Source: a virus
Length of the DNA: 64,000 nucleotides
IMG/VR virus record: IMGVR_UViG_3300029309_000001
Span: 55,027 to 119,026 of that record
Reading direction: 5' to 3' (one strand)
A model generated the notes under the pieces. The model saw only the letters and a program-made list of their open reading frames with translations, did no database searches and was not told the origin of the DNA. Made by a program: the position numbers and the translations under genes. This document shows, piece after piece, positions 1-54,353 of this stretch (position 1 is the stretch's first letter; each line of letters begins with the position of its first letter).

Positions 1-666
1 TAATATTTGTTTTTGTTCTTCAGGTGGTAACTGATCTATCATTTGCATCATAGCTTGTTCTTCATTAAGTTTATTTACTTTTTGAACAAACTGCATTGGA
101 TCTATTTTTTTAGACATTAAAAATGGATAAGCTGCTAAAGGCACACCATCTTCAAATTTCTTTTTACTTTCTGATACAAATGCTAATTCAGATAATTTCA
201 TTTTATTTTTTTCTAACATTAACTCTGCACTTCTTGTAGTTATATCATCTACAAATTCATCATTTAAAGCTGAATAGTATTTGTTTAATGGAAATTTTTT
301 AGATACAGCAGCAGGAGTCATTTTCTTTTTAGAATTAATATTAAATCTAGTAAGCTGATCTTTATTAAGTTTCATTTTAGCAGTATCTGAAAAAATAAAT
401 GATTGAGGAGGTAAACTTAATGCAGTTCCACCTTGTGGATGTCTTTTACCACCAATGTTATACAGCTCAAAGTTACCATCATTAGTTAAATCAGTTAATG
501 CTGTCTCACCTTTTTCTGCTTCTAAATTAGCAAAGGATCTTGGTATAGGTCCTAATGAATTACCATAAGGTGCTCCACCTGTAGCCATAACTTTTACAAT
601 TTTACCATTTTTAAATTTATATCCGTTTGGTAAATTTCCTATTTTTACTTTTACTTTTTTTCCCAT
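1..666 (-). CDS. Virion cargo/internal protein, N-terminal part (runs off the window edge)
   Basis: Open frame from ATG at 666 (MGKKVKVKIGNLPNG...MATGGAP...NLEAEKGETAL...IGGKRHPQGG) with no stop to position 1. It follows the other giant cargo genes in the same direction. Confidence 0.7.
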   Translation of the reverse strand, partial: MGKKVKVKIGNLPNGYKFKNGKIVKVMATGGAPYGNSLGPIPRSFANLEAEKGETALTDLTNDGNFELYNIGGKRHPQGGTALSLPPQSFIFSDTAKMKLNKDQLTRFNINSKKKMTPAAVSKKFPLNKYYSALNDEFVDDITTRSAELMLEKNKMKLSELAFVSESKKKFEDGVPLAAYPFLMSKKIDPMQFVQKVNKLNEEQAMMQMIDQLPPEEQKQIL

Positions 667-668
667 AA

Positions 669-3600
669 TTATATAATTTCTATGTCTGCTCCTGCAGCTA
701 ATAATTCATAATACATATCTGTATCAATACTTACTGTTTTTTCTTTTTGTTCACCACCATCTTTAAAGAAGAATCCTAAACCTCCTGAATACTCCCAATT
801 ACTTGTTGAAGGATTATAAGTAACACCTGCATTTAATAATCCATATCTTGCTTCTGCTCCTATTTTTAATCCGTCATTGCTTTTATAATCTGCAAATAAA
901 TCTAATTGACCTTGAGGAACATAATCATGTTTATCTTTATACATAAATCCAAGACCAGATTTATAAATTGTTTGAGGAACTGGTGTTTTAAATTGTAAAC
1001 CTGCTCTTCCACCATAATAAGGACTAACCATTTCTTGATCATTAAAGTCAATACCACCATATCCTTCTAGCATTATACCAGCAGGTCCTGAAGTAGGTAA
1101 CCCATAAAAATCTTGATCAAGTCTTAATCTAGCTCCTATGTCACCTTTAGCTGTCAGTTTAGTAAAAGGATTTCCTTCATTATCCATTTCTGTAGTTTCA
1201 AAAGGGCTAAAGTTAGTATAAACACCTCTTTTAAATCTACCACCTCCTGCATCTCTGCAACTACCACCCCAACAATTTACCATATCTGCTCCAAAAAATA
1301 AATTTAACGGATGCTCACCACTTTGATATTCAACACCAAATCTTGGATTTGTTAATCTTGTTCCTCTAAAACCATATTGAGCATTAGGTAATTCACTACC
1401 ATATTGACTAAAACCATCTTGTCTTGAAATTACTTTACTATCTGTAAACATAAGTCCTGTGTTTTCATCTTCTTCTCCTCTAGATAATGTATCAGCTGCC
1501 ATTACATTGTATGCATCATCTGAAGATCTAGTAGCTAAATTATAAGCTTGTTCTTTTCCTTCATTTATTTGATCAAATATTTTATTACCAATACCTGCTG
1601 CTTCTTTTAAAAACTTTGCACCTTTTTCAAAACCTTGAACTACTTTACTATCTCTAACATAGTTAAGTTTATTTCTCATTCTTTCTCCAAAAGTATCACC
1701 CCATCTATCTCTTCTGTCTTGTCTTCTTTGTTTTCTTAAAGCTTTTTCTTCTTCTTTTGCTGCTTGCATATCTTCATAAGATTCAAAACCTGCTTCTATA
1801 GCTTTATCTTCTCTTCTTTTATCTCTACGTACACCTCTAAGTTGTCTTCTACTTAAAGTATTACCATCTCCTTCAAATGCAAAATCATCAGTAACATCAA
1901 ACTCTGGTGTAACATTTGCTTGATCAACAAACATATCTTGTTCTGTATTAAATACATCACCATAGGATCTATTGATAGAACCTTCTTTTGGTTTAAATGT
2001 ATTCATATCTATATCTCTTCTTCTAACATCATATGTATTAGCTGCAGATTTTTTCATTCCTTGATTAACTGCATTAGCTGTAAACATATCACCTACATTA
2101 CGGTTTATTGTACCAGTCTCATCTGAAAATGCATCACCTACTACATTAAATTGATCTGAATCAGGAGTGTTAAATCCTTGATTTTCTTCTGTTGCATCTA
2201 CCCATTGACCTCCTTGCCATACATCACCATATGAACTAATAGCTCCTTCTTTAGGCATACCAGCTTCATAATCAAATTGTTCTGGATTTACCATATACAT
2301 TGCTGCTGCATCTTGTGCACCATTTTGTGCTTTATATAATGATCCACCAGTTTGTTTAAAATTACTAAATGCATTATAATTTATACTAGGTGTAGTGGTT
2401 AATCTTTGTGGTGCATATAATGGATTTACAATTGCACTTGAAAAATCTTTATTTCTATAGTTTTTTAACATATCTAATTGTGTTGTTTGTTTGCTAAAAG
2501 GATTAACATTAAATAATGGTGTTTTAAAATTATCTGCTTGATTTAAACGAGTATTAATTAAATTAACACCTTTTTGATTTAATGCAGGAAAAGTTTTATT
2601 AAGTGTTTTTAATTGATTAAAGTTTTTAGGTAATACATTAACAAGACCTGTGTTACCTACACCACTTAACTCAAGAGCACCAAGTGCTAAATTACCAAAA
2701 CCTTCACCAGTTCTACCTTCAGAAAAATCTGTATAAGCTTCAGGTAATGTATTTCTTAAAGCTTCTTGTGACCAATATGCATTATTTAATTGACCAAATG
2801 TTACTGGTGCTCCTATAGTTGAACTACCTGGTACAGTTACACGTGCAAGTTTATTTGCAAGACCAAGACCTCCTCTAACTACACCTACACCACCAACTAA
2901 AGCAGGAATGTAACCCATTAAACTATTCATTTCATAATCAACTGGACCTTGATCAACAAACATTGGGTTTAATAAATTTTCGTTATCACCTATACTTAAA
3001 AACTCATTGCCTGTATTATAACCTATAGTAGGTCCACCATAACCTCCTTTTGATCCTTTAAAATATGGATTAAGACTAGTTAAAACTGCATCTTCATAAT
3101 TGTCTGGTGTTATTGTTTGATAATCTGATTTATAATTAGCTACAATTTGATTCCTAAAATCTTCATAAGACATAGGTTCTCCTTCTTTAAGAACTCCATC
3201 ATTTTGATTTAATATAGGTTTAGCTTTTACAATAGTTCCACCACTTAAATCACTATTATTAATTCTTTTAATATTACCATCTGCTGTCCATTGTTCTCCT
3301 GAAGCTAAGTTAGGATAATTTACACCAGGTGTACCAATTTGAGGTTTATAATCTCTTACTAATTCTTCATAGTCTTTAGCTATTATATTTTCATATAATG
3401 AAGATCTATTAGCATCATAAAAAGTATTTTCTAAATTTAAATTATTTTCATCACCCATTTCAGCATCTTTTCCAAAATTATATATGCTAGTTAAAGGTTC
3501 TCCATTTACAGTAAGTTTGCTTACATCTTGTAAATTTAAATTATATTGATTAGCAAAATTTATAACATCTTTTAAGTTAGAAAAATTTCCTGTTCTTACT

Positions 3601-5741
3601 TCTTTTTGTTCTACAGTTTCATTTCTATATGGATATACTTGTCCTTCATTATCAACAGTCCAAAATACATTTGGTGTTGTTTCATACTGTAAAAATGGAT
3701 CTCTTGATAAATTCCATTCTTGTGCTTGTTTATTTAAATTATATAATTGTGTTCTTCCTTCTCTTGTTGAAGGGTTAGGAAAATTTGGAAAGTCTCTTAT
3801 AATGTTTGAATAAAGATTAAATTCATCAGCTTGTGGCCATGTAGATTTATCTTTAATATTTATACTTCCAGCTCTATAATTAGAATTTCTAGCATCTCCA
3901 TATCCTGCTCCAAGAGCAAGTAAATCTTCTTGCATTTTTAACCACAATTCTAATTGTTGATCTGTCCAATCAGGAATTTCACTTTTATTTTGAAAATGCA
4001 TTAGATCACCACCATCACGTAAAAATGAAAAAGTAGGGATAGAACCACCGTATTTTAAATCAGGATCAAATTCCATATCATCAAGATTAGCATCTTCAGG
4101 TACACTTTCATTATTTTTTTCTTGTGATGTAGGTTCATTACATTTACAATTTGCTGCATCCCAATCTCCAGGTGGTGTTAGCTGTGCACATTTTTCCTGT
4201 AACTCAAAACAATCATTTGCAGTTTGTTGAGAACTTTTTTCATAAGTTATGTTAGTAGGATTTTCTGCATCAAAAGGAATATACTTATATTTTTTTTGTC
4301 CTCTTTCATCAACACCATCAAATACATAAGAACCTTGTATGCCTGTATTATCTTCATTATGAACAAGCATAACAGCATCAGGTACATATTCTGTTTCAAT
4401 CATATCACCTAATAGCTTATCTCCTTGATAAGTTATATTACCATCCATATCCATACTAGATATTTGATATAAATCAGGATACGCAGCAGTTCTATTGTTA
4501 ACATATTGATTATACTCATTCATTCTTTTCTCTTCGTATGTTATGAGTTTATCTGGTTGTGTTGGATCAAAGAATCTAGTTTCATCAAATGGATTTGTTA
4601 TTTTAAATTGTTGATAATTTTCTTTACCCCATCTATTATTACCTGCACTTGGAAATGCAAGCTTTGCCATTTGATTTATTTCTTTTTTAGAGGCATCAGG
4701 ATTTTGTTCTCTTAAAACCTTTTTAAAATTTCTAAATTCTTTTTTAGTTATTTTATTTGGATCAACATCAAAGTTTTGAAAATCTTTAATTCCACTTTGA
4801 AATAAATTTACTATATCACTTAATATGTTAGTATCTTCTCCTGCATTATACATCATAAAAGGTTTAGTATCTACTTTATTAGATCTATCACGTCTTCTTT
4901 TACCACGTTTAGTTTGCCAATCTGCAAATTTATTTAATATTTGATTTTCTTGATTATTTTTTGCATCAAATATATCTGTATTATTATCTAATCCTTCACA
5001 TACTCCTGTTAAAGAATTATAATTTCCACCTTTTGCAGCACACTCATCTGCTTTTGCAACCTCTGACTCAACTTCATTTATTATATCTTCTTCACTTTTA
5101 TTGTTATCTTCAGCTCCTGGATAATTAGTTTCTGCATCTTCCATTCCTTCAACATCATCATTATCTCCATCATCTTGGAATTTTTTTAAAGATCCTCCAT
5201 ATTCAAATGTAGGCATTTGTTGTTGAGGTATTATAGCTTGTTGAGGTTGCATAGATTGTTCTGGTGCTTGTTGTTGCATAACCATTTCTTCTTGTGGTGC
5301 AACAGCTGGTTCATTTAAACCAGGCATTTGTAAACCTTCTTGTATTTGTTCTACAGTTTCTTTTGATTCTTCATAATCAGAAACACTTTGATTTTGTTTA
5401 CTATAAGAACTGTCATTATTTTTTAATGGTCCCCCTTTTTCATAACTATCACAAACATTTTGTTCAGTGCATTTAAAATCATTACTCCAGCAATATCCAA
5501 TATTACCTGACTTATCATTTATACACTTTTTCATTCTATTTGATATGTCAAAAAATATACAAATACCACATTTATCTTCTGAACTTGCTTTACCATAATT
5601 AAATCTAGAAATAGCTCTTTCTCTATTATCTAAATTTAAATCTTGATCAATAGTAGCATCAGGACATGGCGTAACTTGTTGAGTATCACCACCTTCTTGA
5701 TAAACTTCTAAAGTTTGTATGTTAGGGTATTTTTTTGCCAT
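669..5741 (-). CDS. Giant (1690 aa) modular virion cargo protein
   Basis: Long ORF downstream of the tail genes, where crAss-like phages place cargo/ejection proteins. It has an N-terminal Cys-rich domain, repeated xxGG-x-L-x-K-x-Q linkers and a C-terminal amphipathic beta-strand region. Confidence 0.7.
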   Translation of the reverse strand: MAKKYPNIQTLEVYQEGGDTQQVTPCPDATIDQDLNLDNRERAISRFNYGKASSEDKCGICIFFDISNRMKKCINDKSGNIGYCWSNDFKCTEQNVCDSYEKGGPLKNNDSSYSKQNQSVSDYEESKETVEQIQEGLQMPGLNEPAVAPQEEMVMQQQAPEQSMQPQQAIIPQQQMPTFEYGGSLKKFQDDGDNDDVEGMEDAETNYPGAEDNNKSEEDIINEVESEVAKADECAAKGGNYNSLTGVCEGLDNNTDIFDAKNNQENQILNKFADWQTKRGKRRRDRSNKVDTKPFMMYNAGEDTNILSDIVNLFQSGIKDFQNFDVDPNKITKKEFRNFKKVLREQNPDASKKEINQMAKLAFPSAGNNRWGKENYQQFKITNPFDETRFFDPTQPDKLITYEEKRMNEYNQYVNNRTAAYPDLYQISSMDMDGNITYQGDKLLGDMIETEYVPDAVMLVHNEDNTGIQGSYVFDGVDERGQKKYKYIPFDAENPTNITYEKSSQQTANDCFELQEKCAQLTPPGDWDAANCKCNEPTSQEKNNESVPEDANLDDMEFDPDLKYGGSIPTFSFLRDGGDLMHFQNKSEIPDWTDQQLELWLKMQEDLLALGAGYGDARNSNYRAGSINIKDKSTWPQADEFNLYSNIIRDFPNFPNPSTREGRTQLYNLNKQAQEWNLSRDPFLQYETTPNVFWTVDNEGQVYPYRNETVEQKEVRTGNFSNLKDVINFANQYNLNLQDVSKLTVNGEPLTSIYNFGKDAEMGDENNLNLENTFYDANRSSLYENIIAKDYEELVRDYKPQIGTPGVNYPNLASGEQWTADGNIKRINNSDLSGGTIVKAKPILNQNDGVLKEGEPMSYEDFRNQIVANYKSDYQTITPDNYEDAVLTSLNPYFKGSKGGYGGPTIGYNTGNEFLSIGDNENLLNPMFVDQGPVDYEMNSLMGYIPALVGGVGVVRGGLGLANKLARVTVPGSSTIGAPVTFGQLNNAYWSQEALRNTLPEAYTDFSEGRTGEGFGNLALGALELSGVGNTGLVNVLPKNFNQLKTLNKTFPALNQKGVNLINTRLNQADNFKTPLFNVNPFSKQTTQLDMLKNYRNKDFSSAIVNPLYAPQRLTTTPSINYNAFSNFKQTGGSLYKAQNGAQDAAAMYMVNPEQFDYEAGMPKEGAISSYGDVWQGGQWVDATEENQGFNTPDSDQFNVVGDAFSDETGTINRNVGDMFTANAVNQGMKKSAANTYDVRRRDIDMNTFKPKEGSINRSYGDVFNTEQDMFVDQANVTPEFDVTDDFAFEGDGNTLSRRQLRGVRRDKRREDKAIEAGFESYEDMQAAKEEEKALRKQRRQDRRDRWGDTFGERMRNKLNYVRDSKVVQGFEKGAKFLKEAAGIGNKIFDQINEGKEQAYNLATRSSDDAYNVMAADTLSRGEEDENTGLMFTDSKVISRQDGFSQYGSELPNAQYGFRGTRLTNPRFGVEYQSGEHPLNLFFGADMVNCWGGSCRDAGGGRFKRGVYTNFSPFETTEMDNEGNPFTKLTAKGDIGARLRLDQDFYGLPTSGPAGIMLEGYGGIDFNDQEMVSPYYGGRAGLQFKTPVPQTIYKSGLGFMYKDKHDYVPQGQLDLFADYKSNDGLKIGAEARYGLLNAGVTYNPSTSNWEYSGGLGFFFKDGGEQKEKTVSIDTDMYYELLAAGADIEII

Positions 5742-5775
5742 TTACTTAATTAATTAATTATAAGCAGTATACATT

Positions 5776-5789
5776 TATAATATACTAAA
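5776..5789 (-). promoter_or_regulatory. Putative phage late promoter (TTTAGTATATTATA)
   Basis: Copy of a motif recurring upstream of minus-strand structural genes, about 35 nt before the ATG at 5741. Confidence 0.55.
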
Positions 5790-5820
5790 TAATTAGCACA
5801 TTTTCTAATTATATTACTGC

Positions 5821-8800
5821 TTATATCATACCTAAAGACTTTAAATGTTTAGTTCCTGCAGGTGTAAGTTTATCTCCATTTTCATATTTTTTAATAAGTC
5901 TATCTGTTACTTTATCAACTTCACCTCCCATTTGCTTTTTAGTTATTCCTTCATTAAATTTTTCTATATATTCTTGAGGAGTTTTATTAGCTTGTCCTGC
6001 ATTAACTCCATATTTATCTGGAAATACAGATTCTAAACTATTACCATCTCTAAGTACATAACCTAAATATTCACGTGTTCCTTGTCTTCCTAAAAAGTTT
6101 ACTAATGCTGCAACTTCTGTTGTAGTATATGGAAAACTAGGTATTTGTTTGCTATAAATTTTATATAAATCTATACCACTTTCTCTTAGACCTTTTACAC
6201 CTTCTAACTTACCTCTATATCTATTTTCAAAATATTTATTCTGTGCTTCTATATCATTAGCAAAATCTTGTCTACTTCCATCATACATTGTAGAAATTTC
6301 ACTAAACCTTTGTCCATATAAACCTGTAGCAGTTGATTCTGGATTAATCATTAGTTCACCATTAAGACTTTCTGCATAAGCAACTCCTTGTTTTAATTTT
6401 TCAAAATCAACCCAATTTGCATCTAATTCACTTGGTGGTATTAATTCTTTAGTATCTGGATGATAATATATTCTTCCATATATATCAAATGGTTTTCCTA
6501 CAATACTTTCTCCTTCAATATTAAAACCTAAACCTGTTGGTATATCAAAATCATATTCATCATAATAAGCATAATAAGGAAGCTCTCTTTCATCATCCAT
6601 ACCTCTTGATATTTGATAATTACTAAGATTAAAACCTCCTGCTGCAGAATCATTTATTTGCCATTTATCTTTTGATGCATCTTTTGTAATACCCCTTTCT
6701 ATTATGTCATCCATAATATCATCAACATTATTAAAAGAATAATAAACAGACTTATCATCTTCTACTCCTAATGTAGGTTTAAATTTAGATTTAGAAACTG
6801 TATTATGTTTTTGATCAAAACCTAAATACATACCCCATAAATCTTCTGAAGCATTTTTAATATATTCTCCAGCATTAGGATTATCTTTAAATCTAGGATG
6901 ATTTTGAAAATCATCAAATGATGTTTCTACACCATCCCACATAAAAGGTTGTTTTTCTCCATAAAGCATTTCTACCATTGCTTGATCCATATTATAACCT
7001 ATAGGTGTTACAGATTTATATAATCTATTTGCTAACCATCCAGGATTATTTTGACCTTGCATTTGAAACTTAGGTAATCTTTTATTATATTTATCTTTTA
7101 TTGATCCACCTGTCTTTTTTTCTTCTAAATTATTTAACTCTAAACCTTCTAACGTAGCTGCTGTTATAGGTACACCAGTTAACATTTTATTTAAAAGATT
7201 TGCAATAAGTTTATTATTTTGTTTAGTATCTTTTGTTTGATCTAATATTCTCATAACATATCCATCATAATCTGTACCAGGTAGTAATTTAGCATTATCA
7301 GCACGTACCTTAGAAATTAAATCTCCTGTTATATTATCATAAGCATCTGATATATATTTATTATCTAATAGATATTGTTGTAACTCTGCAACATGAGCAG
7401 TAGGCTCTATATACAAAGTTCCTGGTGATTCAAAAGATGGTGAATTAGTTTTTTTTGGAGTAACTGTTTTTATTGGTTCGGTCATATAATCTTGAGTTTC
7501 TTTATTTCTTACTCCAAAACCTTTATCTGCATTACCCCATAGTGAATAACCATCATCAATTAACATTTGATTTTTTAATAATGCAGATGATGTAAGACCA
7601 CCATCATCAACAAATTTTAAATTTGGTGAAAACCAATTAGTATTTGCAGCTCCTAATCTTTGATCAAATATTTTTGTTGCATCATCTGTTATAGGTATAG
7701 TAGTAGATCCAAAACCAAAAACATTTTTTTCAGTATTGCCAGAATTTCTTATTAATTTTCCTACATAGTCCAGTGCATGTTGATCTTCATGTCTAAAAAT
7801 ATTTCTTAACCAATTTTCTGGCAATGCATTTGTATTCATACTTACAAAAGGTAATATACCTTTTTCTAATTGATTATAGTTTTCACCTGAAAAGAAATAC
7901 GGACTATCATCTGGACCATATGAATTAAAATTATTTATAATAGGTATTTGTTTATATGTTGCAATAAATTTATCTACATCTGTATCACTTGCATTTGGAC
8001 CTAAATAATTTTCTTTTATTCTTCTACGTCCTTCTGTAGTATTCATTCTTTCAAGAATATCATTTCTTATATTTAAATAAGATGTATTTCCTGTTAAACT
8101 TTTAGACATATCTTTAACGTCCATTGAATGACTACCTGCACCTAATACTGGTTTACCCATTTGAAGTGTACTTATATATTCAGGATTATATATAAGACTT
8201 TTTAAATCTAATGGTTGAACCATAGAAAAATCTTCAAATAAACTTGTTGTTGGTGTTCCTACCTCTCCTGTTCCATAAAGATCTTCAAATGCATTATAAT
8301 TAACATTTCCCCTAGCTTCTCTACCTATTGCTTCATTATGTATTCTTATTAAATCATCATCTAGATCATCTTTAAAAAATGCTAAATCTTTTTTACTTTG
8401 ATCAACTATATCTGTAAAAGTATTACCTGTTAAACCATGATAATTTTGAAAGTATCCTGGTTGTGCATTATAATAATCTTTTCCAACATTTGATATATTT
8501 TTTGATGTGCCACCTAACCAAGTTGGTAAATAACTACGAAGATAATCTTTTGTATCTTTTACTGTTTGTATTGTTTTTTTTATTTTTGCAGGATTAAACA
8601 AATCTTTATATTGTGCTTTTGGTAATGAACCACCAAGTTTATATAAATCTTTTCCTTTAATAGGTATTATTCCTGGAGATTCTATATCTAAATTATATTT
8701 AGATAAATAACTATCAGGCACTTTAACTCTTATATATTGATTTCCTTTTTGATCAGTAATAATTTCATAAGGATAATCTTTTCCAAAAACTTTATTAATA

Positions 8801-11800
8801 TCTTTTTTAAGTTGTTTTTCAGTATTTTTATTTAATATACTTTGATACCTTTTTGGATAAGCAGATGGATTACTAATAGCAGTTACATCATCAGGATTAT
8901 ATCCTTGATTTGTTAAAAAATTATTTCTAATTTCTTCTATTTTATTTTTTTGTTCTTGAAAACCTCCTGAAATTTCTATTGTGTTACCATCTGGTTGTTT
9001 ATAAGTAACAATCATTTTTTTAGGATTAGTTTTATCAAAAGTAAAAGGTCCTAAAGTTTCTTTACCTACAGCATCTGATTTAATTAAATTACCAAGTGTT
9101 TGATCTACTTCACTAAGAAAATCATTCCAACTATGACCAGTCCAATTATATTCTGTATATAAAGGATTGGGTGCTCCAAATTTATCTGCAGTATATCCTT
9201 GAGTTTTTGCAACTGTTGAAGATAATGGTAAATGTAAATAATCTTTACCACTTTTTGCTGAATAATCTGCAAGTTCAGATAATAATATTTGTTGAGGATT
9301 TTTTCTAAATTCTTTTAAATTTAATTCTACTTCAGATGGATTATTTAATTCATCTAATTCTTTTTTATTTTGTTCCTTTATTTCTTTATTTTGTTTTTTA
9401 CTTTTATTTATTAAATTTTCTTCATATTTTATTTTTGAGTCAACAAATGATTTAAATGCAGGATGTTGTGCTATTTCTAATTGTAATTCTTTTGATATAT
9501 TAGGTGCATTTACATTACTTCTCATAATTGAATTAAACTCTTCATTATTAAAAAAGTTATGATTAGATATATCTACAGATGTTTGATAATCTTTATCTGA
9601 TACATTTGGACCACGGTATTCTGCATTTGCACGTATTGAAGGTGATGATCGTATAAAGTCACGTATTGTTCCTATTAAGTGTTGATTTGTCCAATGCATG
9701 CCATCTTCTGTTTCTAACATAGCATCTATAAAATGATAAGCTTCTTCAGGATTTGTATCTACATCTTTGATATAATTTAAAACATAATTATAATTTTCTA
9801 TTTTTCTTAAATGTCCGTCATAATTTACTGGATTTTCTTTACTTAAATAATCTTTTCGGTTTTGAAGATTTTTATTATATTTTTGAGCATAATCAGATTG
9901 TTTTTCTACTGAAATAGTTGCATCAGGAAACTCATCACTAAAGGCAACTCTATTATGTCCTAATACAAGTTTATCTGTTAAATTTTTTCCAAAATGTGCA
10001 GAACCTGTAGTTTTACTATAATCAGTTACACCTGCATCATCTATAGTTGTTAATAAAAGATTTCCTCTTGCAGAATTGTCACCTTTAAAAATATTAGATT
10101 CATCTCCTTGCCAATAAGTTGTAAAGTTAGAAGTAGGAGATTGTAATGATGTATACATTGTTGGAAATAATAATGTAGGATTTAATGATTGTTGAACTTC
10201 ATCTGCAAATGCATTATAATTAATTGCACCTCTACCTCTATTATTTTGCATCATTGTTTCATAAACTCCTAACATTTTTCCTCTGTCATATCTTTCTTGA
10301 GGAGATAAACCTTTAATTTTTTGAAGATATTGTAAAAATAAATTATTGTTTATATCCCCTTTATTATCTATTATTTTAGTAAGTTCACTATCATTTATAA
10401 TTGTAGGTAATTGAATATTAGAAGATTGAAGTGGAATTTGCTGGCTTGCTATATAATCTTGCCAATTTGCATAAGGCCAATTTTGTCTTAACACTGTATT
10501 AAATTGTCCCATTGATCCTGTTGGTTTATTAGTAAATAATGATGGGTTTCTTGTTGATCTATAATTTAAATTAAGTGTATTTTTAGATGGTGAAAAAAAA
10601 CTTTTAACACCTTGATATAAAGTTTTATACTTTGGATCAAATGGATTATACCATTGAGCTTTTGGTAACTGACCACCGTCTCTAGACATAAAATTAGATT
10701 GTCCAAAATCATCTACTATTTCAAAAGGATTATCAGTCCCTTGAGGAGTTTGTTGTGCAACATTATCCATAAGCCATATAATATCTTCATCTGAAAAGTT
10801 TTTAAATAATCTATTATAACCATGCTTTTCTTTCATCTTTTTTAAATCCTCTTCTGTAAATTTTTTATAATCCCCTGAACTATCATATATACCTGATTTA
10901 TCTGCTTGGTATCTAAATTCTATTAAATCAGATCTAACTTCTGATGGATCTGCATTATGAAATCCTGGTGTTGTACTATAATTTCTATCTAACCACCGTT
11001 TAATTTCATTAGGGTTTTCTGTCATGTATTGTTGTTCATCTTCTGATAATTGATTCCATACATTTTGAAATGCTTTATTTCTTTTATTTATTTTAGCTTG
11101 TAAATTTTGATCTCCTACAAAAAATCCACCTTCAGTATGTCCTAATTCATGAGCCATAATATCTTTCTGTTGTTCCTCAGTAAAAGGACCAATATAATTA
11201 TTTATTGGATCTATAGTAATTGAACTTCTAGTTTTAGTAGAATATCCCTTCTTATGTTTATGTTGTCCAAGTGATCCAGTAAACTTTTCTTCTATAGAAG
11301 GTCCTAGAATAATTGGCTCATCTAATGGTTCAAGCCATATAGAATCTTCATGCTGCATTCTATAAGGATAATCATCTATATATTGTAGACCTTGTTTTGT
11401 TCCTGATTTAAAAAAACGATTAGTCCAGCCTGGTTTATCAGAATTATCAATTATTTTGTTTTTTAAATGATCAAAAGTATTACCTTTTAAATATGACCCA
11501 TACCAATCTACTACAGGTTGATATTTATTTGCTATTGCCATCTCTTCATCAGTAAGTGTATTTGGTAATACTTCTCCAGTAGATTGATAATTAGGTATAT
11601 TAAATTGTTCAGCTATTGAATTTTCAATTGAGTCAGCTTGATTAGCTAAAATTAACGCTTTACTAAATTCATCAAATTCTGGTGAGTTAAGTAACACTCC
11701 TTCTTTAGGAGGTTTTTTACCAAGTAATATTTCATATACTTGTATGTCATCTTTATTCATTTCTAGTATATCTGGTATATTAGAAAAATGTGTGCCACTT

Positions 11801-12501
11801 AAAGTAGAACCTCTACCAGTTTCTAATGGTGTAAACATGTTTACTAAAGGAAGGAATTTTGAAAGAGTTTTTCCTAAAAGTGGTTTTATAGCTTGCAATG
11901 CAGTTCTTATACCTAATTGATCAGTATTATCTTCAGAATCTTCTCCCCCATGTTTTTTCTTTTTTAAATTTGGAGTTTTATAACCTCCTTTAGCAAAAGC
12001 ATCAGCTTCTTCTTCAGAATTAAAATAATAAACCTCTCCTCTTTCTAACGCCATTTTAAAAGCATCTTGTTCTTGACCTTTTTGAAACTCTGTCCATGAT
12101 GTAGGATCTGGAGTTTCTTGTCCTTCTACAGTAGGATATAACATTGGTATAACCATATAAATAGGACTACCATCATCATCTGTCATTTCAATAGTAGTCA
12201 TAAGATGTGTAGATACATTTCCCATTTGTTTATTATAATTAGGAAGTAATTTATTATCTCTTTCTGTTCTTCTTTGTTTTACTTTATTTGTTGGTTTGTC
12301 TTGAACAGGTTGTTCAAATACCATGTTACCTGGAAACTTATAATTAAAACCAGGTTGCATTAATTGTTGATTACCAAAATTATCTGTACCCATAACTGGA
12401 AAGTCTACACCTTTCATAGTTATATCTCCAGATGGTATAATATTATAAGGATTATTTACATCCTTACTATTTCTTTTATATCCGTCTTTACTTAATTTCA
12501 T
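5821..12501 (-). CDS. Giant (2226 aa) polyvalent cargo protein with two zincin (HExxH) domains and a C-terminal lysozyme/transglycosylase-like domain
   Basis: Zincin motifs IMAHELGH and FRHEDQH; SLT-like motif GVAYAES-x-NPESTATGLYGQ; GG..AQ/FQ linkers between domains. Confidence 0.75.
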   Translation of the reverse strand: MKLSKDGYKRNSKDVNNPYNIIPSGDITMKGVDFPVMGTDNFGNQQLMQPGFNYKFPGNMVFEQPVQDKPTNKVKQRRTERDNKLLPNYNKQMGNVSTHLMTTIEMTDDDGSPIYMVIPMLYPTVEGQETPDPTSWTEFQKGQEQDAFKMALERGEVYYFNSEEEADAFAKGGYKTPNLKKKKHGGEDSEDNTDQLGIRTALQAIKPLLGKTLSKFLPLVNMFTPLETGRGSTLSGTHFSNIPDILEMNKDDIQVYEILLGKKPPKEGVLLNSPEFDEFSKALILANQADSIENSIAEQFNIPNYQSTGEVLPNTLTDEEMAIANKYQPVVDWYGSYLKGNTFDHLKNKIIDNSDKPGWTNRFFKSGTKQGLQYIDDYPYRMQHEDSIWLEPLDEPIILGPSIEEKFTGSLGQHKHKKGYSTKTRSSITIDPINNYIGPFTEEQQKDIMAHELGHTEGGFFVGDQNLQAKINKRNKAFQNVWNQLSEDEQQYMTENPNEIKRWLDRNYSTTPGFHNADPSEVRSDLIEFRYQADKSGIYDSSGDYKKFTEEDLKKMKEKHGYNRLFKNFSDEDIIWLMDNVAQQTPQGTDNPFEIVDDFGQSNFMSRDGGQLPKAQWYNPFDPKYKTLYQGVKSFFSPSKNTLNLNYRSTRNPSLFTNKPTGSMGQFNTVLRQNWPYANWQDYIASQQIPLQSSNIQLPTIINDSELTKIIDNKGDINNNLFLQYLQKIKGLSPQERYDRGKMLGVYETMMQNNRGRGAINYNAFADEVQQSLNPTLLFPTMYTSLQSPTSNFTTYWQGDESNIFKGDNSARGNLLLTTIDDAGVTDYSKTTGSAHFGKNLTDKLVLGHNRVAFSDEFPDATISVEKQSDYAQKYNKNLQNRKDYLSKENPVNYDGHLRKIENYNYVLNYIKDVDTNPEEAYHFIDAMLETEDGMHWTNQHLIGTIRDFIRSSPSIRANAEYRGPNVSDKDYQTSVDISNHNFFNNEEFNSIMRSNVNAPNISKELQLEIAQHPAFKSFVDSKIKYEENLINKSKKQNKEIKEQNKKELDELNNPSEVELNLKEFRKNPQQILLSELADYSAKSGKDYLHLPLSSTVAKTQGYTADKFGAPNPLYTEYNWTGHSWNDFLSEVDQTLGNLIKSDAVGKETLGPFTFDKTNPKKMIVTYKQPDGNTIEISGGFQEQKNKIEEIRNNFLTNQGYNPDDVTAISNPSAYPKRYQSILNKNTEKQLKKDINKVFGKDYPYEIITDQKGNQYIRVKVPDSYLSKYNLDIESPGIIPIKGKDLYKLGGSLPKAQYKDLFNPAKIKKTIQTVKDTKDYLRSYLPTWLGGTSKNISNVGKDYYNAQPGYFQNYHGLTGNTFTDIVDQSKKDLAFFKDDLDDDLIRIHNEAIGREARGNVNYNAFEDLYGTGEVGTPTTSLFEDFSMVQPLDLKSLIYNPEYISTLQMGKPVLGAGSHSMDVKDMSKSLTGNTSYLNIRNDILERMNTTEGRRRIKENYLGPNASDTDVDKFIATYKQIPIINNFNSYGPDDSPYFFSGENYNQLEKGILPFVSMNTNALPENWLRNIFRHEDQHALDYVGKLIRNSGNTEKNVFGFGSTTIPITDDATKIFDQRLGAANTNWFSPNLKFVDDGGLTSSALLKNQMLIDDGYSLWGNADKGFGVRNKETQDYMTEPIKTVTPKKTNSPSFESPGTLYIEPTAHVAELQQYLLDNKYISDAYDNITGDLISKVRADNAKLLPGTDYDGYVMRILDQTKDTKQNNKLIANLLNKMLTGVPITAATLEGLELNNLEEKKTGGSIKDKYNKRLPKFQMQGQNNPGWLANRLYKSVTPIGYNMDQAMVEMLYGEKQPFMWDGVETSFDDFQNHPRFKDNPNAGEYIKNASEDLWGMYLGFDQKHNTVSKSKFKPTLGVEDDKSVYYSFNNVDDIMDDIIERGITKDASKDKWQINDSAAGGFNLSNYQISRGMDDERELPYYAYYDEYDFDIPTGLGFNIEGESIVGKPFDIYGRIYYHPDTKELIPPSELDANWVDFEKLKQGVAYAESLNGELMINPESTATGLYGQRFSEISTMYDGSRQDFANDIEAQNKYFENRYRGKLEGVKGLRESGIDLYKIYSKQIPSFPYTTTEVAALVNFLGRQGTREYLGYVLRDGNSLESVFPDKYGVNAGQANKTPQEYIEKFNEGITKKQMGGEVDKVTDRLIKKYENGDKLTPAGTKHLKSLGMI

Positions 12502-15500
12502 TATCTAAAAGATATATTCATTTTACTGTTATTTAACTTAAGTAACATTTTTCTATCACCTGAAACATTCTTTCTTAGAACTAACATGTTATAGTAATGT
12601 CTAAACTTCTTTCTTTGTAACTCTGCTTTGTTATAATTAAGATTTGCTTGATTTAAATCTTTTATATAACCATTTAATCTTGTAATCCAAATAGATCTTT
12701 CTATACCACTAAACTCACCTCTATCATCTGTAATATCCCAGAATTGATTAAATCTATATTTTTGCTCTTCCTTAGAATATAAAATTTGTATATCAGTAGG
12801 AGGATTAATTATAGGATATTGATTTAACAAAGGTACATTATTTTTAGGAGATAGATCTAAAGTAAGTAGACCAGATACTTGTTCTGAATTAAATATAACT
12901 GCTTCATCAAAATTCCAATCTAAATCATGCCATTTATCTGTACCTATTAATTGTTGAGGTCTTGGTAAATTAAAGTTTTTATAAACATAAGATTCCATTT
13001 GATATTCAACACTTCTTAATGTATTTACTACTTGACCTGAGTTTTCAATTAATGTAATTTCCCATGGATAATCTTGACCATAGAAGTTTGCATATAAATC
13101 ATTTCTTGCATTATGTTTCCATATACCACCTACTTCATAATTTGCAGGTACACATTGTTGATATTCATAATTACATATTAAAGGATTTGGATTTATATAA
13201 CCTGGTGTTCCTGCTAAAAATAAATCATCACATTGAGTACCAGGCTCAAACCAAGTTGTTGCTTGAGATGGATCAGGCACAGGTATAGGAGGACACTCAC
13301 ATAAAACTCTTTTACATATTGGTGGATTAAATGAACTACAAACTTGACCTGCAGGTACTTCTGTATAACCAGGTGGACATTCACAAGATACACACTGTGG
13401 TAAAGGTGCACTTGGATCTGGATCACATGGTATAGTAGCAGGCGTATCAGGAACAGTATTAGGTGGACAATTACAACTTACTAATGAATCAACTATAAGC
13501 TGTGCTACATCACCATAATTACTTGCATCAACTGCAAAATGATTAACATTACAAACAGAAGGACCTTGATTACCATTAAATCCTCTTGGCGGCATACAAT
13601 TAATAGTATTTTCCCATGCATTACCACAAGCAGGAGCATTACCTGATGCAAATACAGCATATACTTCTACATTAGGAGGAAAATTAGCTGTATTTTGACA
13701 TGCAACATCAGCATCTGTAATAAAAATAGCAACTTGTCTAGTTGCAGTAGATGCACCTAACATACTAGCATCATTAAGTCTATTTAAAGCTGCTTGATAA
13801 GTTGTAGCTGCTCCATTTGCATTATTAGGAATAGCAGTAACATCAGCAGTTACAGTTGCTGCATTTCCGTTAAGAGGTGAAACAATATAATCTGAAGGAT
13901 TTCCACCTGCTGTATTATTATTAGACCAATTTGCTACACCAACTTGTACATTATTTGTACCTGCAGAACCACCATCCATTCCACCAGATAATAAAGTAAT
14001 GCAAGTATTTATAAATTGTTTTTGAAATACTTGTGTATTATTAGCTGCAGGTCTAGTTGATCCAGAATAATCATTTAAAAAGAATACATCTAAATCTTCA
14101 CTAAATGCAGATCTTTCTGTATCTACTGAAGTTACTATACTTTCTGTAAAATCTATTTCAACAAATGCTGGATCTGAGTCAGTAACAGTAATACAACATT
14201 CACCAACGCTAGGATCAAATGAATATCCTGGAGGACATTGTGGTATTTCAGTAGTTACAGTTTTAGATGTCATGAAATGATTAATACTATTGAATGTTAA
14301 TTCAGGGTGCCAATCATGGAATGAGATCCAAGCTTTTGCTTTTGGATCATAACTAACTGTCCAAGAAACATCTTGGAAATATGTTGGGTTATCTAATTGA
14401 AAAGGTATGTAAGTCAATACATCTTCATATATAGGATCTACTTGTTCAAAGCAATCACATTCTTCTGTTACAAAGTTATATGAACAATTAGGTCCACACT
14501 CAGGTGTTACACCTGGGCATATTGCTTCTGCTAGATCAGCAACAATACCTGGTATATTATCAAATTGAAAATTTCCAGCCATAAATGGATTTGGATCTCC
14601 TGTCATAAAATCATTACCTGCCATTGCTTGTGCATAATCTAATTGATCTTGTGTAGGTACATTATTATTTCTTAACCATCCTGGAATTATTTCTAATTGT
14701 CCAATAAAATTAGGATTTGCTGAATCTTGATATTGAGGATTTACATGAACATTAGCTTGTAACCATTGTATAATATCATCATCAAATCCTTGTGATGCAA
14801 ATGAAGCATGAGAGTTACCACCTAAATTTACCATAGGTGGAGTTACAGGCACAGCTACATGTGGAGCATTAATAGCTGATTGTGCGCCTGCTCCTGGTGG
14901 ACAAGTAGGACAACACATAGGAGGGCTTGTTAATTGGTTTGGTCTATTTACAAACCAAAATGGATTAGGTGCTGGAAAAGGATAACAAGTATTATTAACA
15001 TTTGCAACACTAGAAAAACCATCATATAAGAAAACAAGTTTTTTAGGAATACCAACTCTTGCATTTGCAGGATTAAATAATTCATTTATACCAGACCATA
15101 ATCCATCAGCTACATTTGTACCTTGTCGTATAGTTTGACCTGTTCCAACATTATAACTATTTATCCAACCTCCCATAATACCAGAAGGATTTGTTGGAGT
15201 AACAGCAGAAGGATCTGTTTGAGAAATTAAATTATCATTAAATGTTAATCCTTGCGGAGTAGCTAATGCATCATTTATATTACCTGGTTGTACATCTATT
15301 GGTAATTGACTATATACACCATCCCAAGCACGTGTACCAAAAGCCATAATCCCCATTTTTGTGAAACCTAGATCCATGCTATTTCTAAATGCATTAGTTA
15401 AACCTGTAACTAAATTTCTCATTGATGCTACATTATTTTGAGTATTTACAGAAGCAGAAGCATCTGTTACAATCATAATATCAAATTCACATGGTGGAGC

Positions 15501-18500
15501 AGGTGGACCAAATGGAACATCTGTATAAGATTTTTCACACATTTGTGTTGCTGGATTATATGTAAATCCATCAGGGCATGTTATGTTTTGTGCAACACCA
15601 CTACATGCTGTTTCATTATAATAGAATCCATCACATGGTACATACTCAATACATGGAGAGTTTGTATATTGTTCTGATACATTCCAATCTCTTTTAGAAA
15701 AATAAACTATGTCATTATTAGTATCATATACAGTTTGACAACCAGCTGCTGTTACAGGGTTATCAATTATTTGAGGGCAATCTTCTATCTCAGGAAATGC
15801 AGCTAATAATTGAGATGGTAAATATTTATTAAACCACCACTTCATTCCTGTATTAGTTATATTAATTAAACCTTGACCTGATGTTTGAAATATTTTTCCT
15901 TGTTCTTGAGATATATAAAATAATCCCATTGGTGTATTTAAAACTCCTCTTGAACTTTCAGATGAACCATATTCATGAGATACATCAGAGTTTACTACTT
16001 CTCTAAAGTTTCTATCTACAAATAAACCTCCGTCACCAACAGTTATTTTTGTTCCTGCATCTGTAGTTAATTGATCATTACCTGTAAATATTTTTGGTGA
16101 CATTCTAGGAAATAATACCATAGCACCATAACCACTTATAGGTTTAATAGTATTAATTGTATCTTTAAATTCTTTATAGTTTAATGGAAGGAACACTCTC
16201 CAAAAATCTTTCTTTGCTTCTTTTTTTGCTTGTAAAGAATATATTAAACGTTTTTCATATGTAGTATAACAAGTTTCTGCTACTAATGGATCATAATATC
16301 TAGGTTGTATATTACCAAAAGATGTTGTTCTAGTAATAAATTGATCTATACTTAATGCTTTGTCATACTTATAGAAGTTACCTTTTTTAATATGATCAAC
16401 GTGGAATAGACTTGTAAGATCAGAATACTCTAATCTATCATAATGTCTTTTTTCCATATCTTCACCCCAATCTCTAAAGGCTAAGTTTATTTCTGATTCT
16501 ACAAAAAAGTCATTTACACCATTACAATGTAAATACATAAAACCTTCAGTTATATGAAATAAATTACCTCTTCCTCCAGTAGCACCAAAAAATCCAAGAG
16601 TACCTAAAGCATTAAGATCTCTATCTAAATAATAATAATCATTAGGCATTGCATTTTGAAAAGTATTTGCACCACCAAATAACCAACCCATACCTCCAAT
16701 AGCTTTTGTTAATTCATCTAATCTATATTGTTCTGTATTCATCCAATACGTAGGAAATGGTACATTAGGATATTTTCTATAATCAAATACAAAACCATCT
16801 CTTTCATTATCATCTAAATAATCCCAGAAAAAAGGCATAATAGCTTTTTCTGTATATCTATTTATATATACATCACCTCCAAATAATGGTTGTTGTGTAT
16901 TAAATCTTGTTAATGTAGAAATAATAGGATTACCACTTGCATCAGTTGGTAGTTGATCAGCAAAAAATTCTACACATCCACGCATTGGTATTTGTCTTAT
17001 ACTATCTAATTGACCATATTGATTATCAATGTTAAATTTCATAGCACAATAATGTGCTGCAATATTTGTTGTACTAGGACTTCCAGGATTAGTATGATCT
17101 GCTATACCTGCTCCAGCTGGTACAGTTCCAATTGTAAACTTTGAATTATCATTAAAACCTAATTGTGCTGGATTTTGTAATCCTGCACCATCAAGATTTA
17201 CAGCTACAGTTGTAGGTCTATTTAAATTATTAATTCTAATATTAGCATTAAGTTGAGATATACTACCTTTTAAATATCTTGCAGTATCTATAGAATGTCT
17301 AAATACAGTACCTCCTGGTAATTGATTCATATTTCTATACCAACCATGACTGTTATATTTCATGGCAAAATCTTGAAAACTACAAAGATTATAAATTAAA
17401 TCTATAATTTCCTGACCACCAGTAGCAACATAATTTAAAAAAGTTTGAGCTCCTCCTAATAGACCAATAATTCCAGGTGTTTGAGTAAATCTACTTCCTT
17501 TATAAATTCTTTCTGCTTTTGGTCCTATTGTACCTGCTGTATTCCAACGTGTATTTTGTGCTAAATTTATTGCTCCTTGATCTGCTGCTTGAGCAGCACT
17601 ACCAAAAGCTCCTCCTCCTACTATTAAAGCTGCATCACCTAAAGTTCTACCAGTTCCCATACCAGGTGTTCCTCCTGTTGCATTAGTTCTATCAGTAATA
17701 GCACCACTTGTTAACCAATTACCATTACCCCCAGCCCAACCTGAAGCATGAGGAGCAGCTCCAGTTTGACCTCCACTTCTTGCAGTAGTAGTTTCATTAA
17801 AACTAGGACTTGTTGCATTAGCAGTAGCTGACCATCCATTAGCAAATGCATTACCTGGTGTCATAACTATATTAGTACTATTTCCAGTTTGTGCTTGCCC
17901 TCTTTCTTGACCCATATTATAAGACTGACCAGTTGTTATTTTTCTATCAATTGGTCCTCTCATTTCATACATTGCATATCCTATACCTATAAAAGCTGCT
18001 AAGATAGCTGTTGAATTACGTAATAATTTTTCACCTGGATGCTTTTCAGATTTTTGAAATCTTCCTTTAGCATTACCTGTTAATACACCATATGATTTTA
18101 ATTCATATGCATTTAAAAATGGTCTATTAAACATTAATTCAGGTGAATGAAATGTATGTACATTATTTGAAAATGTATTAATTTGACCACCAAAATTACC
18201 TGTATGAGGACCAAGATCTGTTCCTTGTAACCAGTTTTGCATACCAGTACCCCAGCTTTGAATTGAAACAGTTCCTGTTGGATCTGTAGGTGTTCCAAGA
18301 TTTCCAGGTGATCTTAAATATGGATCTGCTCCTAGATCATTAAATGGATAGTTAGGTATAAAGAATTGTGTTGTACCATCTCCTGATGCTGTTTCTGTAG
18401 GAGCATAAGCTTCCATATTTTTTAATATACCTTTTCCTAATATAGATTTATTACCTTCCCGTGTTCCTACTAAAAATTCATATCCAACTATATTAGTTAT

Positions 18501-20098: not shown

Positions 20099-21016
20099 TT
20101 ATACTCTTCTTCTTGGTGCATGACTTGCAAACATATCATAATAATTATGATATTGTGCTTTTCTATTTACTTCCCAAATTTTTCTTACTTCTTCAAAATT
20201 TGGTGTATTTACAAAGCCAAGAGCATTATTTCTTGCAGCTCTTAATTTAACTTGAATTAATCCAAGTTGTTGTGCAACATTTTCTCCTTGGAAAATCATG
20301 TTTTCTAATATTCTTTCTTTTAGTGCATATTCATAATATTCATTACAATAAGGATGATCTAATACTAATAGTTCACCATCATTATTTTCTAATATACCTT
20401 GATAACTTAAATATACTTTACCTGTTGTAAATGTTGTTAATAAATACCCATCTTGTATTTCTGCTAGATTATGAGATTGTGTATTTAAATTTGGACATTC
20501 ACAACTTACATGAGATGTACTAGTTATACGTAAAGGAAAGAATGATGTATATTCTCTTACTGTAGATTCATTCATTCTTTGAAGAACTATATATTCTCCA
20601 CTAAATGTTGTAACACCTTTACCTCTATCTACTGGACATGTTTTAACAACACATACATTTTCACAATCTTCTGGTTTTGTACATACATGAGGTTGACTTG
20701 GATCTGGTGTCCACTTAGGTTGTGTTGTGTCAGTATGAGTTCCAGATGGTGCAGTATTTACTATTTGATATTCACTACAAACAAATGCATAATTAAGAGT
20801 TTTAAAATCTGAAGGCATTTGTGCTTTATTATGTTCAACATCAATAATTGATTCTTTACTTTGATGTATTCTTAAACCTAAATCATAATTAACTCTTGTT
20901 GCTACTTTAATTAATTGTTGAGGTTCAATCATACCTTCAAGATCATATGTAGAAAAATCTACTTTAACATCTTCTAGCAATTGATCAAATGTTCTATATT
21001 TATGTGATATGGCCAT
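20099..21016 (-). CDS. Tail tubular/ring protein
   Basis: About 300 aa, immediately upstream of the stabilization gene. The C-terminal GYLLTTFTTGKVYLSY..G.L...D motif resembles crAss-like Ttub. Confidence 0.65.
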   Translation of the reverse strand: MAISHKYRTFDQLLEDVKVDFSTYDLEGMIEPQQLIKVATRVNYDLGLRIHQSKESIIDVEHNKAQMPSDFKTLNYAFVCSEYQIVNTAPSGTHTDTTQPKWTPDPSQPHVCTKPEDCENVCVVKTCPVDRGKGVTTFSGEYIVLQRMNESTVREYTSFFPLRITSTSHVSCECPNLNTQSHNLAEIQDGYLLTTFTTGKVYLSYQGILENNDGELLVLDHPYCNEYYEYALKERILENMIFQGENVAQQLGLIQVKLRAARNNALGFVNTPNFEEVRKIWEVNRKAQYHNYYDMFASHAPRRRV

Positions 21017-49969: not shown

Positions 49970-49973
49970 ATGA

Positions 49974-50192
49974 TTACTTTTGTTTAGCAAATTTTTCTGC
50001 ACCAGCTATACCAAAACAACCTAGTACTACCCATGTAAAAGAATCATAAATAGTTTCATTGATTACTAAATCTTTGCCTAAATAGCCTGTCATTAAATCT
50101 AGAAGTGCAAAAAGTACCATTACTAAGAATGCTATAAATCCTACAACATTCTTTTCATTCCAGTCATTATTATCTTTAAATATTCCCCACAT
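49974..50192 (-). CDS. Holin-like two-TM membrane protein
   Basis: 72 aa with two hydrophobic helices and a basic C-terminus, near the endolysin candidate. Confidence 0.5.
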   Translation of the reverse strand: MWGIFKDNNDWNEKNVVGFIAFLVMVLFALLDLMTGYLGKDLVINETIYDSFTWVVLGCFGIAGAEKFAKQK

Positions 50193-52928: not shown

Positions 52929-53025
52929 CGTACTAACAGTACCATTATTGTAATACTATATTATTACATACAGTTTAAGTGAGAGTAGTTAGGTGGGAAA
53001 CCACGTAACTGCATTTGAGTGGGAA

Positions 53026-53056: not shown

Positions 53057-53080
53057 TAAAACCAAAACAAGTATTACGGC

Positions 53081-54348: not shown

Positions 54349-54353
54349 TTAGA

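Follow-up and report, generated by a model that had tools for sequence, protein, structure and literature searches.

The polyvalent proteins of phages and conjugative elements are giant chains of 2-15 unrelated domains encoded beside virion genes, as described in sections of Iyer et al. (2017, PMC5512222), whose authors envisage that they accompany the DNA into the host and propose that autoproteolysis by zincins frees their domains. The cargo proteins C1 (gp45) and C2 (gp46) of the Bacteroides phage crAss001 are stored in the head and tail, and excerpts of Bayfield et al. (2023, PMC10172136) describe them as thought to be ejected partly unfolded and to build a channel. The ejection proteins of T7 (gp14-gp16) and of N4-like phages include outer-membrane pore and lytic-transglycosylase parts and are ejected ahead of the DNA. 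Here we have analyzed a stretch of 64,000 nucleotides (the window), which is the final 64 kb of the IMG/VR virus record IMGVR_UViG_3300029309_000001 (positions 55,027 to 119,026). Giant proteins encoded at the position of the crAss001 cargo genes contain a recurrent peptide, GGSLPKAQ in its canonical form. This very probably marks the junctions of cassettes that are exchanged between related phages, and we put the probability that it is also a site at which the chain is cut to separate the modules at roughly 45%.

Features are given in window coordinates unless stated otherwise, and all those of this record lie on the minus strand. The motif was sought with the strict pattern G[GS][SDQE][LI]..[AF]Q in the 50 open reading frames (ORFs) of the window that were left after removing nine overlapping or antisense ORFs from 59, and in the 155 ORFs of at least 60 aa of the whole record. 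Four copies lie in the 1690-aa C2-position cargo polyprotein P0001 (669-5741; residues 182, 577, 1132 and 1448) and two in the 2226-aa C1-position cargo polyprotein P0002 (5821-12501; residues 609 and 1290), with none in the remaining 48 window ORFs. On shuffling each protein 5000 times the mean number of copies was 0.005 for P0001 and 0.002 for P0002, with a maximum of one. There are seven strict copies in the whole record, all in three consecutive genes encoding proteins of 1123, 1690 and 2226 aa. The pattern is absent from the other 152 ORFs of the record, including those of 5018, 2528, 1867 and 1105 aa. The third motif gene, encoding the 1123-aa protein, occupies positions 52321-55692 of the genome; its N-terminal 222 aa correspond to window positions 1-666, and its full copies MYGGSLPKAQ and LGGGLHKAQ are both just beyond the window. 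A motif profile built from 31 copies was run against all six frames of the record, and matched the three cargo genes only at E ≤ 1 (nine matches, of which eight are training copies). A preliminary description of this DNA had listed the motif strings and proposed that they belong to cargo genes. Every listed string is present in the ORFs, and the confinement to genes at the cargo position holds for the whole record.

The copies in P0002 are GGQLPKAQ (10654-10677, residues 609-616), GGSLPKAQ (8611-8634, residues 1290-1297) and a split copy, GGSIKDKYNKRLPKFQ (7063-7110, residues 1798-1813). Those of P0001 are GGSLKKFQ (5175-5198, residues 182-189), a tandem copy, YGGSIPTFSFLRDGGDLMHFQ (3990-4049, residues 565-584), GGSLYKAQ (2325-2348, residues 1132-1139) and GSELPNAQ (1377-1400, residues 1448-1455), the last of which lies about 12 aa ahead of a predicted beta-barrel. 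There are also half-junctions. KKHGG-ED (11944-11949, P0002 residues 185-186) is supported because P0008, P0009, P0013, P0014 and P0016-P0018 have a full or variant motif there, following the N-terminal module. KQMGG-EV (5923-5928, P0002 residues 2192-2193) is a hinge ahead of the C-terminal tail, and FKDGG-EQ (753-758, P0001 residues 1662-1663) comes straight after the last strand of the barrel; both are hinges conserved in homologues and fall in segments with a predicted local confidence (pLDDT) below 50. These three half-motifs of the preliminary description are thus borne out by homologues or models, whereas MATGGAP is without support and GG[SDEQ] by itself occurs at background level (for example, seven times in the 2528-aa protein).

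The relationship between the motif and the modules was assessed in five pairwise comparisons with homologues. In the comparison of P0002 with P0004, which is without the HELGH module, an 88%-identical alignment begins exactly at GGQLPKAQ (residue 609). With P0006, the first high-scoring segment pair (HSP) ends at residue 1307, ten residues past the copy at 1290-1297, and a 96%-identical HSP resumes at residue 1796, two residues ahead of the split copy; the modules between differ. Three of the four internal breakpoints of these two pairs therefore lie at a motif copy. The fourth is at YQSTGEV, where P0008 and P0009 have GGSLPKAQ before the same next module. P0035 has 442 residues (590-1031) that are extra to P0001, between RDGGQLAKHQ and KDGGSLTKFQ; the site of insertion in P0001 is the tandem copy, and the alignments on the two sides of the insert overlap on P0001 in its single motif. 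At GSELPNAQ, P0034 has about 190 extra residues, lying between YGSELPRAQ and NGSELPNAQ. Finally, the HEDQH module of P0002 (residues 1401-1807) aligns with the P0035 insert over 424 columns at 38% identity (E = 8e-63), up to the motif, where the alignment stops. Since the P0035 insert is the P0002 HEDQH module, cassettes move between C1-like and C2-like genes. As read from these alignments, the motif marks junctions, and cassettes appear to have been inserted, deleted and moved with both of their ends at motif copies. This agrees with the preliminary description, in which the motif was placed at module boundaries and related phages were expected to differ by module swaps with breakpoints there. 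Insertions flanked by copies could have arisen as copies recombined with each other, or could reflect selection for joints that fall in linkers.

Structure prediction points in the same direction. AlphaFold2 was applied to residues 1761-2226 of P0002 (a 22-row alignment, mean pLDDT 77) and 1090-1690 of P0001 (11 sequences). In P0002 the GG of the split copy ends a stretch with pLDDT < 50 (residues 1778-1798), and the GGEV hinge at 2192 is within a break with pLDDT < 50. In P0001 the folded units are separated by long coil (pLDDT < 50) that contains GGSLYKAQ (1132) and GSELPNAQ (1448), and the long strands of residues 1467-1658 (pLDDT 67-80) are directly followed by GGEQ (1662). In these models the motif copies are thus predicted to lie in flexible, low-confidence linkers between folded units.

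With a looser pattern the number of copies rises to 84, in 26 of 27 proteins, and the consensus is [K/F][K/R/Q][Y/D/F]-G-G-S-L-P-K-A-Q-[D/W/L]-[G/Q]. Proline is present in 65 and lysine in 76 of the 84, and neither position is fixed by the search pattern; the Q position is so fixed. The residue that follows Q is not conserved. Six window copies vary at third codon positions (GGT/GGA, TCA/TCT, TTA/CTA, CCA/CCT and GCT/GCA) while keeping the encoded residues. Because synonymous sites vary among the copies and the residues are retained, selection must act on the peptide rather than on the DNA. A DNA-level recombination signal as the conserved feature was considered, and rejected on account of the same differences at third codon positions in the six window copies.

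Homologue searches with the whole length of P0002 returned 24 proteins of 1264-3509 aa, and those with P0001 returned 11. A search of IMG/VR with the protein pattern gave no close relatives. The back-translated DNA pattern gave 70 stretches on 66 IMG/VR contigs, many of them of 104-125 kb. In the 11 stretches with two or three matches all 23 copies are in frame with the same basic and aromatic flank, and both of the single-match stretches examined (L065 and L010) encode genuine giant mosaic proteins. In each of four further viral records, the matches are likewise concentrated in a single giant ORF or in two; one of these records, of 245.6 kb, has five matches at 61.7-68.4 kb. Among 185,579 prokaryote species (one genome each) the DNA pattern gave 99 single matches, spread over all phyla. 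The chance expectation is about 139 (596 Gb, two strands, one per 8.6e9 positions at equal base frequencies), so that cellular genomes are not enriched for the motif. The motif profile matched 87 proteins at E ≤ 0.001 among 1.84 billion cluster representatives, these being clusters at 50% identity; 68 of the 87 have at least 1000 aa, and 85 have 2-6 matched stretches. The motif-bearing family is therefore small, at 87 of 1.84 billion clusters.

The canonical motif is in none of the three cultured phages tested; the profile matched nothing in the Cellulophaga phages phi14:2 and phi17:2 at E ≤ 1, nor in crAss001 at E ≤ 0.1. In phi17:2 gp041 (L001:12375-15062) the junction is reordered as [F/Y]Q-x-GG (NFQAGG, SYQNGG, TFQIGG and KFQSGG), and this phage might offer a culturable system for the study of junction processing. 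Some relatives have a variant junction GGWLDKFQ-x-GG (P0024 and P0032; L010:1845-6437). Motif-like sequences also occur at true C-termini, namely PGGWLDKY and PGGWLDKYH (P0032 and P0024), and NGGWW in the 1123-aa protein (L171:3422-6793). The metagenomic protein P0113 (143 aa) has four tandem copies of KFQYGGQIPIWWPNSNMVA, which could be either variant junctions arrayed in tandem or an artefact of the assembly.

The genomic position of the three motif genes indicates what they might encode. The IMG/VR record is a single contig of 119,026 bp with a CheckV completeness of 100%, and the window has a GC content of about 30%. The source phage is assigned to the crAss-like phages because of Pfam matches to ring proteins, and the host of this phage of about 119 kb is probably one of the marine Bacteroidota. 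PHROGs identify the large terminase TerL (43284-45473), the portal (40402-43185) and the major head protein (MCP, 36552-38192). Pfam identifies the tail ring proteins CrAss_Ring_2 (21019-21693, E = 5e-17) and CrAss_Ring_1 (20099-21016, E = 4e-9), and there is an additional weak Ring_3/4 match under the Pfam cut-off. The order on the minus strand is the ring genes, a gene for a 2528-aa virion protein at the muzzle position (12501-20087; phrog_37948, E = 2.6e-45), two giant ORFs and the start of the third. The 2528-aa protein has a von Willebrand factor A (VWA) domain at residues 2000-2128 (E = 4e-8) and no copy of the motif. In the passages of Bayfield et al. that describe it (PMC10172136), the crAss001 order is rings, muzzle, cargo C1 and C2, and then the RNA-polymerase proteins. 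The three motif genes are thus at the crAss001 cargo position, directly after the ring and muzzle-position genes, and the names muzzle for the 2528-aa protein and cargo for the genes that follow are putative assignments by synteny. Downstream of the cargo genes there is a 5018-aa ORF without the motif (G000:C1:33879-48935, outside the window). It is preceded by a 1105-aa ORF, which has no Pfam match, and followed by an 1867-aa ORF; all three are at the RNA-polymerase position of crAss001 and lack the motif. Further Pfam matches come from regions 49310-50002, 46367-47200, 27886-32307 and 23572-24126 of the structural block. They are a PhoH-like ATPase (Pfam, E = 2e-49), a PD-(D/E)XK nuclease match of 21 bits against a Pfam cut-off of 22, and fn3 domains in proteins of 1473 aa and 184 aa.

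For the phi4:1 proteins gp040-gp042, the annotation gives virion status 'based on experimental MS/MS proteomics analysis'. The HELGH module of P0002 (residues 437-582) has 31% identity (E = 2e-9) with phi17:2 gp042 and phi4:1 gp041. Over its N-terminal 35 residues, P0002 has 54% identity (pairwise E = 1e-8) with the beginning of phi17:2 gp041. In phi17:2 one gene encodes the zincin protein and another the N-terminal-module protein. Taking synteny and the phi4:1 annotation together, we infer that the cargo proteins are likely to sit in virions.

None of the three cargo proteins has a Pfam or PHROG match, and there is hence no YkuD match either. Searches of solved structures by sequence gave none for P0002 and two chance-level rows for P0001. 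P0002 comprises a constant N-terminal module, cassettes, an SLT-like module and a C-terminal tail. The HELGH of its zincin-like module was read from the sequence (11137-11151, residues 451-455), and a second HExxH module, with HEDQH (7777-7791, residues 1571-1575), is the one found also in the C2-like P0035. The SLT-like module is conserved and common to the homologues (5929-7062, residues 1814-2191); its best Foldseek match is the MltF lytic transglycosylase at E = 0.79, a weak match. P0001 has a Cys-rich N-terminal module, a variable middle, a conserved module at residues 1140-1447, the beta-barrel and a tail. The barrel is predicted to be of the transmembrane type with 10-12 strands (768-1343, residues ~1467-1658), and Foldseek matches its model to the designed TMB10 (E = 8e-5), the BrkA autotransporter beta-domain (E = 7e-4) and invasin. 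On this modelled structure it may be a virion-delivered outer-membrane pore. Of the module labels in the preliminary description, the HExxH sites are present in the sequence and the beta-barrel is supported; the SLT-like label has the weak MltF match.

The last strand of the barrel ends ...GLGFFFKDGG, and in the relatives P0027, P0045, P0049 and P0104 single or paired barrels of this kind lie between copies of the motif. The Cys-rich module of P0001 (5199-5741, residues 1-181), with the pattern CP..C..C..C..C..C, is kept in all P0001 homologues and comes after a leader of about 15 aa that ends in VYQEGG. Against solved structures it matched a CCCH zinc finger alone, at chance level (E = 0.12). 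Following the SLT-like module of P0002 is a helical element of about 35 aa (5824-5922) with the pattern GGE..L..RLIKKYE.G.KLTPAGTKHLKSLGMI. This element is C-terminal in some homologues and internal in P0011, P0012, P0021 and P0025-27, and a string resembling it opens P0024 and P0032.

The homologues contain modules that pass the Pfam cut-offs for SET, YkuD and LysM, with YkuD and LysM modules found in P0019, P0025 and P0027. One homologue has an ART-PolyVal match of 28.5 bits, below the Pfam cut-off of 31.2 bits. The effector-type modules that had been supposed are therefore present among the relatives, the ART-PolyVal match at a level below the cut-off. Module order differs; SET is first in P0015 and P0019, and barrels are in mid-chain in P0027. 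What remains constant in the P0002 family is an N-terminal module of about 185 aa, together with the SLT-like module and the C-terminal helical tail. The constant parts of the P0001 family are the Cys-rich N-terminus, the 1140-1447 module, the barrel and the tail.

How might such proteins function? We suggest that the three genes following the muzzle-position gene would encode ejected virion cargo in the form of polyvalent strings of independent modules, in which the modules at the two ends, being constant, probably act in packaging and ejection. Between these would lie the swappable cassettes, HExxH, beta-barrel and others in this phage, and SET, ART-like, YkuD and LysM in relatives. The junctions would carry [K/R][Y/D]-GG-S-L-P-K-A-Q, or the degenerate GG-E form, in a flexible linker. 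The chain would be cut at the peptide, either in the head or after ejection in the host envelope and cytoplasm. The cutter would be the cargo-borne HExxH modules, acting in cis or in trans, or a protease not yet recognised. Cleavage is preferred because the motif resembles, in its behaviour, the sites at which viral polyproteins are divided; judged by sequence, a conserved junction motif separates unrelated parts, as in a processed polyprotein. It is preferred also because the zincin and N-terminal-module proteins of phi17:2 are separate genes, and because HExxH modules travel in the cargo proteins, autoproteolysis by zincins having been proposed for polyvalent proteins in the sections of Iyer et al. 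noted above (PMC5512222). A single uncut chain across the envelope fits poorly with the variable order of modules among homologues, and with modules that would act in different compartments. The barrel would belong in the outer membrane, LysM, YkuD and SLT at the peptidoglycan, and SET and ART-like modules presumably in the cytoplasm.

A number of observations weigh against cleavage. The genome has no match to S78 (PF04586), C48 (PF02902) or MPTase-PolyVal (PF18818, E ≤ 1), and no protease family was found among 20 structural-block ORFs searched with Pfam and 10 with PHROGs, S77, S14, S49 and the PA clan not being included in the search. On sequence grounds the HExxH modules of the cargo proteins are thus the sole candidates for the protease. 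Yet a plain HExxH is missing by eye in the 1690-aa P0001 and in P0006 and P0007, which excludes cleavage in cis as a general mechanism. With 8-11 conserved residues, the motif exceeds most protease sites in length. The crAss001 protein gp45 is apparently uncut from tail to capsid, and the available text of that paper (PMC10172136) is without mention of cleavage or proteolysis; N4 vRNAP is packaged unprocessed, according to an extract of Iyer et al. (PMC5512222). The structural models also leave room for doubt. The preliminary description expected the copies to lie in inter-domain linkers, and this is the case for those at 1132 and 1448 and for the GGE hinges, but the LPKFQ half of the split copy at 1798-1813, IKDKYNKRLPKFQ, is modelled in a confident helix (pLDDT ~85). 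In addition, the P0001 model is weak, with a mean pLDDT of just 51.9 from 11 sequences. Self-cleavage between GG and S by a serine nucleophile was rejected, as serine is at +2 in just 51 of the 84 copies. Host signal peptidase I was likewise considered; the enzyme of Bacteroidetes follows an A-Q rule with cleavage between the two residues. It was rejected given the lack of an upstream hydrophobic core, the proline at -3 and the occasional F, H or Y at -1.

If the chain is not cut, the peptide might be a docking or handling motif, bound as a linear peptide by a partner that holds or orders the unfolded modules during packaging and threading. The partner might be the interior of the capsid or portal, the lumen of the tail, a chaperone for packaging or a protein of the host envelope. 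Strong conservation at the peptide level within disordered linkers would be expected of such a motif. The motif-like true C-termini (GGWLDKY in P0032 and P0024, and NGGWW in the 1123-aa protein) leave nothing to release, and in the excerpted text (PMC10172136) crAss001 gp45 contacts the portal and tail rings through short segments, with no report of its being cut. Against this, the presence of 2-6 copies per chain, scaling with the number of cassettes, suits punctuation better. We therefore consider docking rather unlikely. The same copies bear on the proposal of the preliminary description that the motif is a capsid-packaging tag, which becomes the weaker reading since the copies are internal and multiple. 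To our knowledge the packaging signals described so far are single and terminal, and we find no single terminal tag of the kind used in capsid targeting (the CTS of T4) or cargo loading (the CLP of encapsulins). In favour of docking, the motif has GSL in common with the cargo-loading peptides of encapsulins. The invariant N-terminal module and the C-terminal module or tail are better candidates for packaging and docking than is the motif.

The peptide might instead be passive, a tolerated flexible joint that travels with the cassettes and is maintained by descent and in-frame selection, with microhomology and no binding partner. The copy on each side of the insertions is what recombination between copies predicts, the composition is GG-rich and contains proline, and degenerate junctions such as GGE... 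and QSTGEV seem to be functional too. Yet the peptide retains its L, P, K, A and Q while synonymous sites vary, and a passive linker would have no need of a fixed K-A-Q. Moreover, 24 nucleotides are short for homologous exchange, and the basic and aromatic flank is the same in 23 of 23 copies in the 11 multi-match stretches of other viral contigs. A purely passive role is accordingly quite improbable. Lastly, the conserved lysine (76 of 84 copies) and glutamine are two residues apart, the glutamine being fixed by the search pattern, and might enter an isopeptide or transpeptidase reaction that anchors or cross-links the chain, for example to peptidoglycan by a YkuD L,D-transpeptidase. The YkuD and LysM modules of P0019, P0025 and P0027 would be in keeping with this. 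The three proteins of the window have no YkuD or other Pfam match, no transglutaminase-like gene was seen, and the argument is one of analogy. We regard covalent anchoring as highly improbable. Cleavage at the junction is the reading that we prefer, and should it be correct, the peptide and its protease would constitute a new phage system of maturation or effector release, and a natural scheme by which foreign proteins could be loaded into virions.

How does the locus compare with the systems described at the outset? It shares with the polyvalent proteins the multi-domain character (two HExxH modules, SLT-like module and beta-barrel here; SET, YkuD and LysM in homologues) and the neighbourhood of virion genes, coming after those for TerL, portal, MCP, ring and muzzle-position proteins. 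It differs in that the signature MPTase-PolyVal is missing (PF18818, no match at E ≤ 1), with HExxH modules of unassigned family instead. The sections of Iyer et al. referred to above (PMC5512222) name no junction motif and no linkers, whereas here there is one junction peptide together with cassette exchange. The crAss001 cargo proteins are of 60-91 kDa in the excerpts of Bayfield et al.; the cargo here is of 1123-2226 aa and mosaic, and is likened to them by gene position. In the T7 and N4-like phages the ejection proteins are separate and of single function, whereas in this phage parts of this kind are joined to other cassettes by a shared peptide.

In searches of full-text literature LPKAQ was not met in any phage paper, nothing relevant was found on polyproteins of Crassvirales, and there was no junction motif among the matches listed for ejected cargo of crassviruses, PMC11445570 and PMC13434306 on ejection proteins being among them. 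The novelty lies in the shared junction peptide and the documented cassette traffic, polyvalent and crassvirus cargo proteins themselves being known. In this way these phages diversify their injected content by in-frame exchange of cassettes at a common joint, including exchange between two cargo genes. For the handling of polyvalent and cargo domains after packaging, a single defined junction sequence makes a direct test possible.

More distant systems provide further parallels. Polymorphic toxins also use a short peptide to mark the border of exchanged cassettes, as with VENN in CdiA, with one border before the C-terminal toxin; here there are 2-6 internal borders per protein, and cassettes cross between two genes. 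The polyproteins of eukaryotic viruses are processed at short junction sites, GG-X in pp220 and pp62 of African swine fever virus (ASFV) and in adenovirus, and Q-(G/S) for picornavirus 3C and TEV. The likeness is that of a short conserved junction with GG and [A/F]-Q between unrelated mature parts. The differences are that the genome has no clan CE (C48) match, the PA clan lying outside the search, and that the residue after Q is unconserved. In the MARTX toxins a swappable array of effectors, reshuffled between strains, is delivered as one chain that is cut after delivery by a built-in protease. MARTX are secreted bacterial toxins, and their protease is a cysteine protease domain that cuts after leucine once a eukaryotic cofactor has activated it. 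Here delivery would be by the phage virion and the target would be bacterial, with proteolysis a candidate step. It is possible, if doubtful, that the whole constitutes a plug-and-play delivery of effectors by a phage, in which any module with the junction on both sides could be placed in the cargo genes and transferred from one of the two to the other, and would be packaged, injected, freed by the cargo-borne metalloproteases and put to work in separate compartments of the host. Such a system would be the bacterial-virus analogue of the MARTX toxins and of the polyproteins of eukaryotic viruses.

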